Source of the DNA: a virus
DNA: 47,161 nt
Virus record (IMG/VR): IMGVR_UViG_3300046060_000019
Span: 1 to 47,161 of that record
Reading direction: 5' to 3' (one strand)
Made by a program: the position numbers and the translations under genes. The notes below the pieces were generated by a model. The model had not been told where the DNA came from, did not search any database, and saw only the letters and a list, made by a program, of their open reading frames with translations. Positions 17,037 to 33,200 of the stretch are shown piece after piece (position 1 is the first letter of the stretch; the number at the start of each line of letters is the position of its first letter).

Positions 17037-18893
17037 CTATCCGACTATGCCGCCAACGCTCGTTATATCGCCGCTCGTACTGGTTGGCCCGACCGTGGCC
17101 GCCACGTAAGCGTACAACAGGGCATAGAAGCCGTCGTCTTTCTGGTTCGTCCCGAACGTCGTGAAGTATTCCTTCTTTTTCCCGGTCTGTTCCGATTCTT
17201 TGAATTCCCGCTTTACCGCCGTCAGGTGGTTCGTCCAGTAATCTATAATCTCGCGGGTGTCCGGGTCGTCGTGGAACGGGATACTAATACCGTCCTTGTC
17301 CGTTCGACGGACTGGATAATCCACGTCGTCGGCGTGGCTGGTGTCGTCAAAGCCCTGTTCGTCGGGGAACAGCCGGACAATCCGGTTCGCCCACGGCGGC
17401 TGATACGCCTTCAGAACGCGGTCGTCCAGCGTCATGTACGGCCATTCCCCTGTCTCGCGGTCCACGGTCCCGAAGCGGTGACCGAGTACGAGCGACCCCC
17501 AGCCGTATTCCGGTATCTGGTTCGGGTTGGCGTCGCCGTTCTGGAACAGTCCGACGCCTTCCGACCCGTACCCCATGTCGAACACCGCCCGCCCCCTGTT
17601 GGGTATGCCGAACCTGACCATTAGGTCCGCTATTTCCCGACGGTCTTCGGCCCGTGTGTCGCCGTCAATCAGTTCGACGGTGTCCACGGTGACCCGTGTT
17701 GGAAACGTTTCGTCGCGCTCGTTGACGTGAAGGACGACGGCGATTGTGTCCGAGGATTCCCCGCCGCCGTGGTCCACGCCGAGAAAGTGCGGTTCGTCGT
17801 CCAGTCCCACCTGTCGAAGCGCCCGGTCATGGTCAGCGACCCGCTGAATCGCCTGTTCAGGTATGGGTTTGGCCGCCCCGGAATAGAAGCGGGCCAACCG
17901 ATACCGGACGAAGTCGCCTTCCGGCGTCGTCGGGCGGTCGTATTCCCGCATGATGTAATCCAGTTCGTGTCTCGGCGACACCAACTGACTGAAGTGATAG
18001 CCACGTCGGACAGCGCCGGGGTTGGTCGCCTTCCAGAACCCGTCAGAAAGAACAGTGGCCTTGTCCACCTGTTCGCCGCATTCTTTACAGTGACGTTCCC
18101 ACGTCTTCGGGTCCGTCCCCACCAGCCGAACACTGTCCAACGTCACTGTTTGTTCGTGGCCGCACTTGGGACACGGGAAGAACCATTCTCGTTGGTCAGA
18201 TTCCAACCAGTATTCGTGATAGACGGTCCCCTCGTAGTTCGGGGTCCCCGTCATTAGAATACGCTGATTCCCCTTGTCAACGGCGTTCTTGAAGTTCTCT
18301 ATCGCGGGGCGTGTCCACTGTTGAAGTTCGTCAGCGACGCCGACGTGTCCGTGATAGCCCTGTATCTGGTTCCCGTCGTTCCACGCGGACCGGGCTTCCA
18401 ACACGCTTCCGGGACCGTGCGGCGGGGACTGAAGGTCGTTCCGCTGAACGTTCACGTCGTTGGCGTCCAACAGCGCCTTCAGAAACGGCGGGTCCCCCCT
18501 CGACCCGTTCACCATGCGACGGACGACAGTTTTCTGGAACGTCCGTATCTGACGCATGCGCGGCGTCGCATAGATACAGTCCCGCATTTGCTCGGTCGTC
18601 CCGAAGAACCACTTCACTCGGGCCGACTGTTCGGTCTTCCCCAGCCCACGGGCGAACAGCCAAATGTGTTCTTCCGGGGCGTCGTCGTCAGCGACAGCCC
18701 GCATGGGCTGTTTCCAGAACCGGAAGTCACCCGAGTAATCCAGCGGGTCGCCGTCCAGTGTCGTCAGGTCTTCCGCCCACGCTACGGGGTCGCCCCCAAC
18801 CTGTTGGAACCGCTCGTAAGCGTCGCCGGACGCCGTCGTGGTTGCCTGAAGTTTTGCCTTCAGTCGGTCTTCGGGGTTCTGTTCCATAGACAT
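17037..18893 (-). CDS. terL: Terminase large subunit
   Basis: Walker A-like FARGLGKT, Walker B-like HVGVADE, a CPKCG...CKECG zinc-ribbon insert (as in GpA-type terminases), and an FLGVDHGGG nuclease-domain Asp. Confidence 0.85.
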   Translation of the reverse strand: MSMEQNPEDRLKAKLQATTTASGDAYERFQQVGGDPVAWAEDLTTLDGDPLDYSGDFRFWKQPMRAVADDDAPEEHIWLFARGLGKTEQSARVKWFFGTTEQMRDCIYATPRMRQIRTFQKTVVRRMVNGSRGDPPFLKALLDANDVNVQRNDLQSPPHGPGSVLEARSAWNDGNQIQGYHGHVGVADELQQWTRPAIENFKNAVDKGNQRILMTGTPNYEGTVYHEYWLESDQREWFFPCPKCGHEQTVTLDSVRLVGTDPKTWERHCKECGEQVDKATVLSDGFWKATNPGAVRRGYHFSQLVSPRHELDYIMREYDRPTTPEGDFVRYRLARFYSGAAKPIPEQAIQRVADHDRALRQVGLDDEPHFLGVDHGGGESSDTIAVVLHVNERDETFPTRVTVDTVELIDGDTRAEDRREIADLMVRFGIPNRGRAVFDMGYGSEGVGLFQNGDANPNQIPEYGWGSLVLGHRFGTVDRETGEWPYMTLDDRVLKAYQPPWANRIVRLFPDEQGFDDTSHADDVDYPVRRTDKDGISIPFHDDPDTREIIDYWTNHLTAVKREFKESEQTGKKKEYFTTFGTNQKDDGFYALLYAYVAATVGPTSTSGDITSVGGIVG

Positions 18894-20189: not shown

Positions 20190-20822
20190 TCAGACTTCAC
20201 CATTTTCGTCGCCTTCCCACATGGCGTTCGCGCCGTCGGGGACGCCACCGCCGCCACCGGACGACGAAGGCCCGCCACTGATACCCTCGTACTTCAGTCC
20301 CAGCCGGACTTCTTTGGATACACTGTCCAGCGCATCCAGCGTCCCCACCTTCGGCTTTTCCACCATACAACGGTCCATGGCTTCGCCGGGGTCCATTCCC
20401 TGTTCTATCAGTTCTTCAGGGTCCCGTATCTGTTCTTCATAGAACACGCCGTCTTTCAGTAGGTGTTCCTGAAGTTCGTCGCGGATTACGGCGAGCGACG
20501 CTAACGCGGCGGCTTCAGACTTGTTCTCGGCTTTCCCGTGGTATTCGACGTAATAGTCTTCAAACAGCCCCAGATACGGTTCGCCCAGTTCCTTGAACCA
20601 TTCCAGACGCCGCTTTACGGACATGTGAAGCCCGGTGTCCACGGCGTTGAAGTTCCCTTCCGACGCCCCGCGCCCGTCGGGTTCGTCGTCGGGGCCGTCG
20701 GGCTGGTGGGACTTCAGCCAACACCGCCCGTTCTCGCCGTGCTTTGCGTGGGTGGGGTTCTGACAGGGACCGTTCGCCCCCTCGTACCCACAGTTGTCGG
20801 CGTCACCAGTGTTGTCAGGCAT
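20190..20822 (-). CDS. Terminase small subunit-like protein
   Basis: GNFNAVDTGLH resembles the GN.NA.KHG motif seen in many small terminases. The track ORF was trimmed to the ATG at 20822 (MPDNTGD), exactly 35 nt after a class A motif. Confidence 0.45.
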   Translation of the reverse strand: MPDNTGDADNCGYEGANGPCQNPTHAKHGENGRCWLKSHQPDGPDDEPDGRGASEGNFNAVDTGLHMSVKRRLEWFKELGEPYLGLFEDYYVEYHGKAENKSEAAALASLAVIRDELQEHLLKDGVFYEEQIRDPEELIEQGMDPGEAMDRCMVEKPKVGTLDALDSVSKEVRLGLKYEGISGGPSSSGGGGGVPDGANAMWEGDENGEV

Positions 20823-20857
20823 GTCAGACACTCGTATGCTGAACGACTTATCCCACC

Positions 20858-20868
20858 GTGACGCTGGA
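20858..20868 (-). promoter_or_regulatory. Class A promoter-proximal motif
   Basis: gtgacgctgga, followed on the minus strand by GGTGGGATAAGT. A 35-nt spacer leads to the ATG at 20822. Confidence 0.6.
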
Positions 20869-21209
20869 AGGTGGACGCCCCGCCCGGAACGCGCCGACGG
20901 CGACGGTGAACGAGCGAACAGCCACGTTGGACAGTCCGAATTTGTTTCCTGACACTCGGGACCGACCCCCGCCGGGTAGCGCGTCGCCACGGAATAGCCG
21001 GTTTGTGGGCGTGTCGCTGGGCGTCGTTGGTGAAAGTAGGAAAAGGCCCCGCCGGGCGTGTTATTCCCGGTGGGGCGTGGTCACGAAGGGTCCGTGACGG
21101 GACGGTGGGGGACACCCGTGGTCGCCTTCCCACCCACTCGGTCCATGGTGGACCTATCGGCTTTTAGCCGATATGCGGGGTCACCAGACTTCCACGGCGT
21201 TACGTCCCA

Positions 21210-21325
21210 TGCGCCCGTCGGGAATTGAACCCGGTTAGGCCACCTTCCCACGGTCCAGACAGCACGCGACGGCTTCCCCATGGGTCACCGTCCGCTTATC
21301 TGGGCCGCGTTCGGTCCACGGGCGC
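21210..21325 (-). ncRNA. tRNA-like RNA, 116 nt
   Basis: The 5' GCGCCCG pairs perfectly with the 3' CGGGCGC. A T-arm CCGGG-TTCAATT-CCCGA precedes the 3' strand, with discriminator A. I could not fold the D and anticodon parts into a cloverleaf. Confidence 0.4.
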
Positions 21326-21429
21326 TGGTAAAAGGTGGGGGTAGTGGGGGATAGATGTTCGGGACGTGTCCCGTGACGCGGGCCGGTCCTCGTATCGCCA
21401 CGGTCGCCGCGTCAGCGCCGTGGACCGGA

Positions 21430-21593
21430 AGCCGCCGGACGGACTTGAACCGTCGGACATGCCTACATGTCGGCGGAGTGGGCAGGGCCGCCGGGCCGTC
21501 TATCGGCGTCAGGTCCCGGCGTCAGCCCGTGGGGTCGTCCTACCCAGACGACAACGACGTTCGTGTTCGACAGGCTGGATTCCAGACAGCGGC
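21430..21593 (-). ncRNA. tRNA-like RNA, 164 nt
   Basis: The 5' GCCGCTG pairs with the 3' CGGCGGC (one G-U). The T-arm GACGG-TTCAAGT-CCGTC is perfect. Internal hairpins are GTCGTC-TGGGTAG-GACGAC and GACATG-TAGG-CATGTC. Confidence 0.4.
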
Positions 21594-21738
21594 CATGCTG
21601 TCGGTCGTCAGGCCGGTGTTACGAGCGGGGGTCACCCCAGTTCGGCCCGCTGGGGTGGGCTATTCCCGTGGTGATAATCAACTGGTGGTCGTCCATGCGG
21701 TACGTGACTGGTTACCACTCGGGAACTATTGAACGACC

Positions 21739-21749
21739 GTGACGCTGGA
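21739..21749 (-). promoter_or_regulatory. Class A promoter-proximal motif
   Basis: gtgacgctgga lies 5 nt after the stop at 21754. It is followed by GGTCGTTCAATAG and only a 25-codon ORF (21696..21619) before the non-coding region. Confidence 0.55.
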
Positions 21750-21753
21750 AGTT

Positions 21754-21921
21754 TCAGTGGTGGTGACGGACGGCGATTCCAACCAGTACGACCACGGCCA
21801 CGACGCCCAGTACCGTCAGGGCGTTCCGTGCGGCCCACTGGACGGCTAAGATTACGCCGCCTATCCAGACGGCCACCAGTACCAACAGCGCCACCAGCGT
21901 GGCGTCCAGTACGTCAGACAT
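21754..21921 (-). CDS. Small membrane protein (55 aa)
   Basis: MSDVLDATLVALLVLVAVWIGGVILAVQWAARNALTVLGVVAVVVLVGIAVRHHH, with an ATGTCTGA overlap with the upstream stop. It is below the track cut-off. Confidence 0.5.
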   Translation of the reverse strand: MSDVLDATLVALLVLVAVWIGGVILAVQWAARNALTVLGVVAVVVLVGIAVRHHH

Positions 21922-22324
21922 GGTGGGACACGTTCAGGTTCCACCCATTCTTCATTACTCGGTCCACGACGCCTAACAGCGACTTCCGTTCCACGTTGAA
22001 CGTCACGGCGAACGTCGCGGGGGGCTTCGGCGGGTCACCCTCGTTGGGTTCGTCAGCCGCGACGGTCACCGAATAGGCGGCCACGCACGGTTCGCCGTCC
22101 GTTGTCTCGGTGGCGTTCAGTACGGCGTACTGGTGTTTCAGCGTGTCCCGTTGTTCAGTGTGGACCCAGTATAACGGTCCCGCGTCGGCGTCGTCCAGCG
22201 TCGTGAACAGGAATTCACCCTTCCGGTCCACCTCGTTCCCCGACCGTTGGGAACGGTAATACACTTTCAGGTCGTCGCCCGGTTCCAGCCGGGACAGGTC
22301 CGGCGGGTCGTCAGTCGTCGGCAT
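21914..22324 (-). CDS. Hypothetical protein (about 136 aa)
   Basis: Track ORF 21914..22330; the ATG at 22324 is preferred over the GTG at 22330. Confidence 0.55.
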   Translation of the reverse strand: MPTTDDPPDLSRLEPGDDLKVYYRSQRSGNEVDRKGEFLFTTLDDADAGPLYWVHTEQRDTLKHQYAVLNATETTDGEPCVAAYSVTVAADEPNEGDPPKPPATFAVTFNVERKSLLGVVDRVMKNGWNLNVSHHV

Positions 22325-25983: not shown

Positions 25984-26412
25984 TCAGGCGTCCGCCCAGT
26001 CCCGAAGGTCACCGTGGCGTCGCCGGGGTTCGTCGCGCCCGTCCATGTATGGCCTGAAGTCAGCGCCCCAGACTTTCGGAACGCGAAGCCACTGTTCGCC
26101 CCGCGCCTTCCGGTCGTCGCGGATTGTCCCTTCCCGGTCCCGTTCGGTGAAGGTACTCGGGTCGAACACCAGAAAGTCTTCGCGGACCCGGATTAACAGC
26201 ATGGCGTCGGCGTCCCGCGCTCGTTCCACCAGTTTTCGCATGGCGCTAATGTCGCCGTTCTTGTGGGTTTGGCTGACGGCGCTGACATAGAAGACTTCGC
26301 CGGGCTGGGGTTCGACCTTGAAGGCGTACTTCCCTTCACCGTCTTCATACCACGCTGTAATCCGCGTTCGTCGGGACTTGAACCACTCGGCGGTGTCTCG
26401 TAACAGCCCCAC
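25984..26412 (-). CDS. Hypothetical protein (142 aa)
   Basis: Track ORF with a GTG start. I recognised no motif. Confidence 0.5.
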   Translation of the reverse strand: MGLLRDTAEWFKSRRTRITAWYEDGEGKYAFKVEPQPGEVFYVSAVSQTHKNGDISAMRKLVERARDADAMLLIRVREDFLVFDPSTFTERDREGTIRDDRKARGEQWLRVPKVWGADFRPYMDGRDEPRRRHGDLRDWADA

Positions 26413-33026: not shown

Positions 33027-33200
33027 CGGACAGGGCGGGATTTGAACCCGCGAAGCGACTTCCCCGGCGCTTCCGAAGGACACAAGGACAGTGTTGTCCC
33101 GGCGGGGGTGTCCGCCGGTCCCTCGTACCACGTCCCCGGTTCCGCCGCCAAAGCCCGTTGATGAAAACGGGCCGCCTTGTCCAGACTCGGCCACCTGTCC
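33027..33200 (-). tRNA. Oversized tRNA-like gene (174 nt), possibly an intron-containing class II tRNA
   Basis: Acceptor GGACAGG/CCTGTCC (7 bp, perfect). D-arm GCC-GAGTCTGGACAA-GGC. T-arm GCGGG-TTCAAAT-CCCGC. Discriminator G followed by TTTT. About 90 extra nt carry internal hairpins. Confidence 0.5.

Follow-up and report, generated by a model that had tools for sequence, protein, structure and literature searches.

The stretch of DNA analysed here (47,161 nt, referred to as the window) is the ~47 kb genome of a haloarchaeal tailed virus with a G+C content of ~60%, in which all convincing genes lie on the minus strand and encode acidic products. Apart from the gene for the large terminase subunit (TerL), genes for a tape measure protein, a tail tube protein, a Mu-F-like head protein and a PadR regulator can be recognised, together with a PCNA-like match that is weak and sub-threshold. 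The nearest described virus, Haloarcula hispanica tailed virus 1 (HHTV-1, Madisaviridae), is distant kin, with a terminase identity of 48%. The largest gene-free gap of the genome, the non-coding stretch 21753-20823, sits between two copies of a motif designated class A (Table 1) and holds what we call the unit, with the TerS-like and TerL genes directly downstream. The 210-aa product of the TerS-like gene resembles, by its position and motifs, a small terminase subunit, and its conservation behind the unit extends to all relatives. When 40 viral ORFs were scanned with Pfam, no RNA-related or integrase domains emerged, and because no integrase domain is found among these ORFs, a reading of the gap as an attP site is without support.

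Table 1. Features of the gene-free unit and its neighbourhood, with positions in the window
Feature	Position	Strand	Remarks
Class A promoter motif TTCCAGCGTCACGGT	21750-21736	-	Opens the unit (putative promoter); same in all relatives
TATA-like TCAATAGTT	21732-21724	-	Just after the upstream class A motif
5' domain	21703-21477	-	RNAalifold (window, L010, L059): 55 pairs, 11 compensated
25-codon ORF	21696-21619	-	From ORF list; start codon region inside conserved long-range helix
46-nt mini-tRNA (t-element-like)	21476-21431	-	Covariation; fold z-score -2.85
57-nt pseudoknot domain	21430-21374	-	Directly after the mini-tRNA; in all 7 relatives
Small hairpin CGGGAC-AC-GUCCCG, then C-rich linker ending UUUU (21333-21330)	21373-21326	-	Sequence reading
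116-nt tRNA-like insert (module 2)	21325-21210	-	Fold z-score -4.25
3' domain	21209-21107	-	RNAalifold: 34 pairs, 4 compensated
Inverted class B box ACCGUCCCGUCACG	21106-21093	-	First 9 nt (ACCGUCCCG) invariant in all 8 relatives
GC-rich hairpin, A-rich loop AAUAACACG, then UUUU	21076-21041	-	Predicted transcript end
Second class A motif	20869-20855	-	Ahead of the TerS-like gene
TerS-like gene, 210-aa product	20822-20190	-	ATG 20822; directly downstream of the unit
Large terminase gene (TerL)	17037-18893	-	phrog_675, E 6.5e-65

Coding capacity and promoter motifs of the gap

The original prediction had described the gap as free of acidic ORFs and as containing, after its upstream class A motif, a 25-codon ORF. 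Both observations hold. The ORFs of the gap have pI values of 10.9-12, compared with a median of 4.38 for real genes, and the G+C content is flat over the three codon positions (0.68/0.62/0.68), whereas in the adjacent genes it drops to ~0.4 at position 2; by these sequence measures the gap lacks coding capacity. The 25-codon ORF keeps its length in one relative only (L010) and is missing or changed in L059, L007, L008 and L006; because its conservation does not extend past L010 and a helix buries its start, a translated peptide was rejected, and the ORF is probably not a gene. A protein gene disrupted by errors was likewise rejected: the gap ORFs of L010 and L059 run antisense, have pI values of 11.4-11.5 and do not conserve their frame, and insertions and deletions between the relatives are not multiples of three. 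An ordinary protein gene at this place in homologues, which the original prediction had named as the finding that would speak against it, was not found.

Nine good copies of the class A motif exist, each of them on the minus strand, and a search allowing ≤3 mismatches gave 18 matches where 3.1 were expected. For six of the nine copies, an ATG stands exactly 46 nt after the motif start, a spacing with which the motif fits a promoter for leaderless (haloarchaeal) mRNAs. The motif, to which the original prediction had drawn attention, is real. Applied to the unit, the spacing rule predicts a transcript start near 21703, and the second class A motif is predicted to drive the TerS-like gene. A sigma-70/intrinsic-terminator scanner, which is unsuited to archaea, missed the 9-nt-loop hairpin.

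Relatives were recovered from metagenomes with the terminase and the 210-aa product as protein queries. In seven contigs, a gene-free unit in syntenic position, flanked by two class A motifs, precedes a TerS-like gene; six copies are full (L006, L007, L008, L010, L052 and L059) and one is partial (L051), and the length of the unit ranges from ~690 to 1100 nt. The unit is absent from HHTV-1 and from contigs with 48% terminase identity. Searches for further copies returned no real relatives from phage and plasmid collections (DNA search), nothing real from IMG/VR (pseudoknot pattern and TerS profile), 37 chance matches and none with a class A motif from metagenome contigs (pattern), and, from species-representative genomes, nothing real with the TerL profile and three bacterial chance matches with the pattern. 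Literature searches brought up no comparable non-coding RNA described from an archaeal tailed virus. The comparisons below are based on 7-8 related sequences, and some compensations may be single events common to sister lineages.

The mini-tRNA and the adjoining pseudoknot

The T-loop consensus GGTTCRANTCC occurs four times in the window, compared with 0.5 expected, and always on the minus strand, the matches including 21441-21451 and 21221-21231; the fourth, at 26374-26384, is a chance match in a coding region and has no stem. The strings quoted in the original prediction are all present, namely the acceptor pairs and T-arms, the hairpin 21152-21173, the GC hairpin with its T-run near 21040 and the inverted class B box. 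The 164-nt tRNA-like module 1 (21593-21430) that was assembled from some of them was rejected, as it shows no covariation, has a z-score of -0.95 against shuffles and uses its 5' strand in a local hairpin: GCCGCTG (21593-21587) pairs at five of seven positions in L010 and at none in L059, and belongs to the 3' half of the conserved hairpin GACAGC/GCUGUC. The real element is 46 nt long, its acceptor 5' strand being CCGCCG at 21476-21471, and the hairpin CTGG-AAT-CCAG, previously taken as a substitute for a D-arm, falls outside it.

This mini-tRNA consists of the acceptor CCGCCG/CGGCGG, a 16-nt spacer hairpin with AGGCA, the T-arm GACGG-UUCAAGU-CCGUC and one unpaired C. Its length and layout are identical in the window, L010, L059 and L052; the stems of these three relatives differ in sequence from those of the window and are Watson-Crick at all positions. 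Across relatives, the acceptor measures 6-7 bp (CCCCGA/UCGGGG, GCCCCC/GGGGGC, GGCCCCG/CGGGGCC), the spacer, 14-16 nt long, forms a small hairpin and includes the conserved AGGC, and the T-arm is canonical (T-stems CCCGG/CCGGG, GGCGG/CCGCC). At the same position in L006, L007 and L008 the canonical T-loop is missing: in L007 the topology is retained but the hairpin has no T-loop, in L008 a simple 8-bp hairpin is all that is present, and in L006 two hairpins are arranged in another way, so that in these three a processing role would need a looser substrate. The stacking of an acceptor stem on a T-arm-like hairpin that characterises t-elements is found in the window, L010, L059 and L052, and so is their direct abutment on a neighbouring RNA, with 0-1 nt separating the acceptor 3' strand from the start of the pseudoknot (2 nt in L007). 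Compared with the Rfam family mascRNA-menRNA (RF01684), the element scored 17.8 bits (E=1.8, at 21431-21477) against a gathering score of 42.5, and its likeness to mascRNA is a resemblance of layout only.

The pseudoknot domain, a feature that the original prediction had missed, reads in the order U-UCCGG(P1)-U-CCACGG(P2)-CGC-UGACGCGG(PK)-CGA-CCGUGG(P2')-11-nt linker-CCGGC(P1')-CCGCGUCA(PK'), with the helices P1 (UCCGG/CCGGA), P2 (CCACGG/CCGUGG) and PK, the last comprising 8 bp between the P2 loop and the segment immediately after P1. Its length is 57-63 nt across relatives. Among seven sequences, P1, P2 and PK each carry compensatory two-sided changes; for example, PK is formed by UGACACGG/CCGUGUCA in L010, UGGCGCGG/CCGCGCCA in L059, GACGCUG/CAGCGUC in L007 and GACCCGUG/CACGGGUC in L008. 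In a MAFFT alignment, 95.5% of the cells in the pseudoknot helices are paired, compared with 27-40% when the partners are slid. Six pairs are altered on both sides, a count lowered by L008, which is one column out of register in the alignment, and the covariation score is 0.296, compared with 0.132 in shuffles (0/500). A covariance model built from the domain located a single copy in each relative and no copy in HHTV-1 or elsewhere. No Rfam 15 family matched the pseudoknot at gathering thresholds, and at E≤10 there were only chance-level matches (twister-sister, 15.7 bits vs 34). The check with Rfam and covariation that accompanied the original prediction gave covariation in several helices and no Rfam family above threshold. 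On these comparisons, the pseudoknot is a new, previously undescribed motif that lacks an Rfam family, and it is the most conserved feature of the unit.

The pseudoknot helices are nearly all Watson-Crick, and the strand is accordingly not identified by the pseudoknot alone.

The accessory slot and the remaining domains

Downstream of the pseudoknot lies a slot whose content varies. In the window it holds module 2, which the original prediction had recognised as a second tRNA-like element. Its perfect 7-bp acceptor (GCGCCCG/CGGGCGC), T-arm (CCGGG-UUCAAUU-CCCGA) and stable fold stand, and with the acceptor stem and T-arm it has the stem arrangement of a t-element; however, the T-stem has one C.A mismatch, and the module is specific to the window genome among the relatives compared rather than a conserved part of the unit. 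A long irregular hairpin takes the place where D and anticodon arms would be. In L008 and L051 the slot carries a true tRNA-Glu(UUC) whose intron, at position 37/38, is a textbook hBHBh' case, in L007 an odd 82-nt tRNA-Gly-like gene, and in L010, L052, L006 and L059 it is empty; the slot tRNAs of the relatives lie on the same strand as the unit. Module 2 is therefore an accessory filling of a tRNA slot whose content varies. A search of IMG/VR with its acceptor/T-arm pattern retrieved only an unrelated bacterial-phage tRNA-Leu and one unclassified element.

By the tests applied, module 2 is not a tRNA. Standard ARAGORN finds no tRNA gene, and no RF00005 match lies within 20500-22000 even at E≤10 (Rfam gathering score 29 bits), while the positive controls pass, with 48.9 bits for L008:6970-7103 and 34.6 bits for the window element 33027-33200. 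A tRNA with a single intron was rejected by brute-force deletion followed by ARAGORN, which gave a tRNA in 0/2945 variants of module 2 and 1/2945 of the 164-nt module 1, compared with 650/2945 for the element at 33027. An intron of the bulge-helix-bulge (BHB) type was rejected too: the candidates in the unit are at background (20 vs 12.4 in shuffles) and none restores a tRNA, module 2 contains no BHB motif, and the controls L008 and L051 yield one perfect hBHBh' motif each. ARAGORN in intron mode was discarded as evidence, its relaxed threshold calling 35 'tRNAs' in the window, mostly noise. The ARAGORN tmRNA search found nothing, and a tmRNA identity was dismissed on the grounds that the T-arm stands before the pseudoknot, not after it, and that a long-range 5' acceptor strand is not conserved.

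The 5' domain comprises the local hairpin GACAGC/GCUGUC (21602-21585), a hairpin at 21520-21490 with the conserved loop CUGACGCCGAUA, and a long-range closing helix GACGAC (21693-21688)/GUCGUC (21552-21547), which is compensated in L059 (GUGACC/GGUCAC). Between pseudoknot and slot, the small hairpin and C-rich tract are common to L010, and T-runs occur at the same position in relatives; the UUUU at its end may be a weak internal terminator, in which case the unit might split into two transcripts. The 3' domain, also found in L010 and L007, is closed by GGGAC/GUCCC and CCGUGG/CCACGG and encloses the hairpin UAUCGGC/GCCGAUA (21173-21152) and a variable hairpin; three of its pairs are G.U on the minus strand, and the opposite strand would have A.C mismatches. 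The terminator hairpin, whose A-rich loop is conserved in most relatives, has 98.8% of cells paired among eight sequences and compensation in five of ten pairs, with a covariation score of 0.543 compared with 0.120 in shuffles (0/500), and its G.U and U.G pairs exist on the minus strand only. The folding energy of the whole transcript is mildly better than that of shuffles (z -1.9), and the opposite strand is similar (z -2.6). At the level of sequence comparison, the folds of the unit's RNA domains are established.

Over its 14 nt, the inverted class B box matches exactly the reverse complement of a box that lies ahead of a gene (35516-35503), and it is nearly complementary to 34324-34311 and 32991-32978, where the internal differences are G.U-compatible. 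Three early-region genes are preceded by class B boxes complementary to ACCGUCCCG. Against the remainder of the genome, the unit has 20 antisense 12-mers, compared with 5.1 in shuffles (maximum 23), and the excess is not clear, the class B box excepted. The version of the 3' box in L006 is ACCGUCCCGCCGCG.

Predicted transcription and proposed processing of the unit

We favour, with slightly better than even confidence, the reading that the region is a virus gene for a long structured non-coding RNA, made as a promoter-to-terminator precursor that host RNase P and tRNase Z would cleave at its tRNA-like elements. As predicted from the motifs, transcription would start at the class A promoter (~21703) and end at the GC hairpin and U-run, giving ~660 nt with the order branched 5' domain, mini-tRNA, pseudoknot, accessory slot (here the 116-nt insert), 3' domain and terminator hairpin. 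Host RNase P and tRNase Z would recognise the acceptor/T-arm stacks, and the precursor would be cleaved at the mini-tRNA and at the tRNA or tRNA-like element of the slot. Cleavage would free the pseudoknot RNA, giving it a defined 5' end (UUCCGG...), and separate the other domains; the effector parts are likely the conserved pseudoknot and the invariant ACCGUCCCG box. We infer the promoter, the terminator and all cleavages of this transcript. The dedicated non-coding transcript with tRNA-like and other structured RNAs that the original prediction had proposed is supported by synteny, promoter spacing, the covarying terminator and compensated helices. Its observations were largely correct, with one element mis-sized and the main conserved feature, the pseudoknot, overlooked; its interpretation is partly supported.

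According to the published descriptions, the t-elements of Haloferax volcanii are tRNA-like, lie upstream of 5S rRNA and are cut by RNase P and tRNase Z, whereby they set the 5' end of 5S rRNA and release an RNA placed between two of them (Hölzle 2008 and 2012, as cited in PMC4326828 and PMC4946936). The placement of the mini-tRNA against the pseudoknot and of tRNAs in the slot fits this logic. Among the roles listed in the original prediction, that of a processing signal finds in these elements, as described, its closest experimental precedent (PMC4326828). The parallel, drawn from those descriptions and not from sequence, extends to the haloarchaeal host group and to a tRNA-like fold directly against another RNA; unlike the described elements, the present one is viral, lies within a long non-coding RNA, lacks the T-loop in three relatives and would be cleaved as deduced by analogy.

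In MALAT1/mascRNA and the TMERs of murine gammaherpesvirus 68, a tRNA-like unit within a longer non-coding RNA lets tRNA-processing enzymes set adjacent ends, and the TMER (tRNA-miRNA) transcripts are also viral. The unit shares with them the small tRNA-like element inside a longer non-coding transcript; however, they are eukaryotic, and here a pseudoknot adjoins the element in place of a triple helix or pre-miRNA. Phages offer further examples in which one transcript combines tRNAs, or tRNA-like folds, with small stable RNAs: in the tRNA cluster of phage T4, with its stable 'species 1 and 2' RNAs, tRNA-processing enzymes release small stable RNAs, and the C4 antisense RNA of phages P1/P7 is matured by RNase P and acts by base pairing. 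In contrast to the unit, these have bacterial hosts, and they bear no sequence or structural similarity to it. An antisense role of the unit is only suggested by the complementarity of its class B box to 35516-35503.

An alternative to processing is a single particle, one large unprocessed RNA of ~660 nt in which the T-loop and acceptor parts serve as tertiary-contact modules (compare RNase P RNA, tmRNA and YrlA). With only 1-2 nt between them, the acceptor helix and P1 could stack, the pseudoknot is kept in L006 and L008 where plain hairpins replace the mini-tRNA, and every domain lies between one promoter motif and one terminator. Yet the element of the window, L010, L059 and L052 keeps the features read by enzymes (5-bp T-stem, UUCRANU loop, acceptor flush with the T-stem), and the true slot tRNAs need excision anyway; we regard such a particle as unlikely. 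It is improbable that the unit is a decaying island of viral tRNA genes, with functionless pseudo-tRNAs as modules and a promoter and leader as the remainder, since compensatory changes, which decay would not produce, maintain the mini-tRNA and pseudoknot, and module 2 keeps its perfect acceptor and stable fold. Decay would agree with the different true tRNAs in the slot of L008, L051 and L007, the empty slot of four relatives, the confinement of module 2 to the window genome and the report of pseudo-tRNA genes in the halovirus HGTV-1 (PMC13532342). The unit resembles the tRNA genes and pseudo-tRNAs of haloarchaeal tailed viruses, such as HGTV-1 with its one intron-bearing tRNA and several tRNA pseudogenes, in having true tRNAs in the slot of relatives, one with a canonical bulge-helix-bulge intron, and differs in that the two modules of the window fail every tRNA test and the core of mini-tRNA and pseudoknot is no tRNA gene.

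The position of the unit directly upstream of the terminase genes invites two further readings. A DNA-level element, be it a pac/cos packaging site, an origin or clustered binding sites for regulators, could account for the recurrent GTCAC-containing boxes, the inverted class B box and the nearly exclusive Watson-Crick pairing of the helices. Two-sided changes in interleaved helices would, however, be senseless in duplex DNA, the G.U pairs of the terminator hairpin and 3' domain exist on one strand only, the T-loop motifs and tRNAs are strand-specific, and the spacer 21040-20870 is still free for a pac site, which makes a DNA element very unlikely. Structured RNA followed by a terminator-like hairpin just ahead of late packaging genes also recalls a cis-acting leader governing read-through into them, like the 6S leader of lambda pR'-tR' or the put RNA of HK022; this is highly improbable, as a second class A promoter with the 46-nt ATG spacing sits between the terminator and the TerS-like gene, which therefore needs no read-through. 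As for a decoy of host tRNA-targeting factors, one of the roles in the original prediction, the mimicry of acceptor and T-arm is real, but neither module has an anticodon or D arm, leaving little for anticodon nucleases or synthetases to recognise, and no partner protein is identifiable in the genome; a decoy is extremely improbable. Interleaved compensated helices, strand-specific G.U pairs, promoter spacing and the covarying terminator together argue for a structured minus-strand RNA rather than a DNA site or a broken gene, and we treat the class B box complementarity and the adjacency to packaging genes as leads only.

On the favoured reading of a processed transcript, a speculative and rather improbable extension is that the mini-tRNA and pseudoknot form the core of a new class of functional RNA in archaeal viruses, in which the mini-tRNA would recruit a host tRNA enzyme and the freed pseudoknot would act by one of three routes: in trans on viral gene expression (e.g. 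through the ACCGUCCCG box against class B boxes), as an RNA cofactor of the packaging machinery (compare phi29 pRNA), or as a small ribozyme or ligand sensor.

The case of module 1 cautions that oversized 'tRNA-like' elements drawn from end complementarity alone can err by >100 nt. The comparative evidence suggests a viral non-coding transcript punctuated by tRNA-like elements and carrying an undescribed pseudoknot motif. A multi-domain RNA maintained by compensatory evolution through a virus lineage is a concrete experimental target, and the unit reveals a variable slot in which viruses exchange true, intron-bearing and degenerate tRNAs. If the proposed processing is true, it would extend to a virus the haloarchaeal t-element principle, in which tRNA enzymes serve as general makers of RNA ends.

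A tRNA-derived gene in the window, and tRNA and tRNA-like genes in relatives

The gene at 33027-33200 scores above the Rfam tRNA threshold, with a good acceptor stem, class II-like D arm and T arm, while its anticodon and variable region are replaced by approximately 100 nt. A possible anticodon arm is GCCCGU-UUUCAUCA-ACGGGC, with a loop of 8 nt. ARAGORN called a tRNA from 650 of 2945 single-deletion variants of the gene, and the bulge-helix-bulge motif is degenerate at best.

Among the metagenomic contigs of related viruses, L008 and L051 carry viral tRNA-Glu(UUC) genes whose introns, 59 and 66 nt long, lie at position 37/38 and are each flanked by a perfect bulge-helix-bulge motif (helix CUUU/GAAG, bulges CGA and ACA/CAA). 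The two genes have almost identical exons but differ in intron sequence. The tRNA-Gly(GCC)-like gene of a third contig, L007, is accepted by ARAGORN, and a comparison with the Rfam tRNA model gave no match at E≤1.

In the pseudoknot domain of the ncRNA unit, the linker is a run of 10–11 C residues in the closest relative (L059:2249-2263, L058:106-119) and mixed, purine-rich sequence in the other relatives. The C run may be an artefact of assembly; alternatively, it may represent a hypervariable homopolymer.

Coordinates of the features in the window and in related contigs
Feature	Location	Strand	Properties
tRNA-derived gene	window 33027-33200	-	Rfam tRNA 34.6 bits (threshold 29)
tRNA-Glu(UUC), intron-bearing, viral	L008:6970-7103; L051:1-130		
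tRNA-Gly(GCC)-like gene	L007:2054-2135		82 nt; anticodon stem 8 bp, loop 9 nt
Conserved protein	window 20190-20822	-	200-220 aa; homologues P0031-P0056; directly downstream of ncRNA unit
Spacer	window 20870-21040	-	170 nt; between terminator hairpin and next promoter
Class B box CGTGRCGGGRCGGT	window 35516-35503, 34324-34311, 32991-32978, about 27841; L006 (contig) about 4690	- (sense, window)	
Class A motif TCCAGCGTCAC	window 39688, 29297, 26704, 21749, 20868, 17027, 9848, 913, 494	-	nine sites

The protein downstream of the ncRNA unit

The conserved protein and its homologues share a C..C..C motif at the N-terminus and one or two copies of a GAPxGNxNA repeat. The protein has no match in Pfam; its position makes it the probable small terminase subunit.

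A homologue of this 210-aa protein also occurs on L060, a JGI contig of 45.6 kb, in cellular haloarchaeal surroundings, where it adjoins a tyrosine integrase and an Eco57I-type methylase. Neither a terminase nor the ncRNA unit lies near it, which suggests that the locus is a small integrated element or satellite.

Spacer and promoter-like motifs

Within the spacer, the blocks CACCCGGCGGGG, ACAAATTCnGAC and GGCTGTTC are kept in relatives, and the region may act as a regulatory or packaging site. The class B box, followed 4–6 nt further on by CYGACRCC, lies immediately upstream of early-region genes and could represent a second promoter or operator class; an exact inverted copy is found inside the ncRNA unit (21106-21093). 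In six of the nine window copies, the distance from the class A motif to the ATG is fixed at 46 nt, and a TATA-like element lies between the two. The motif appears to serve as the general promoter of this virus lineage and recurs in relatives with terminase identities as low as 63% (contig L012).
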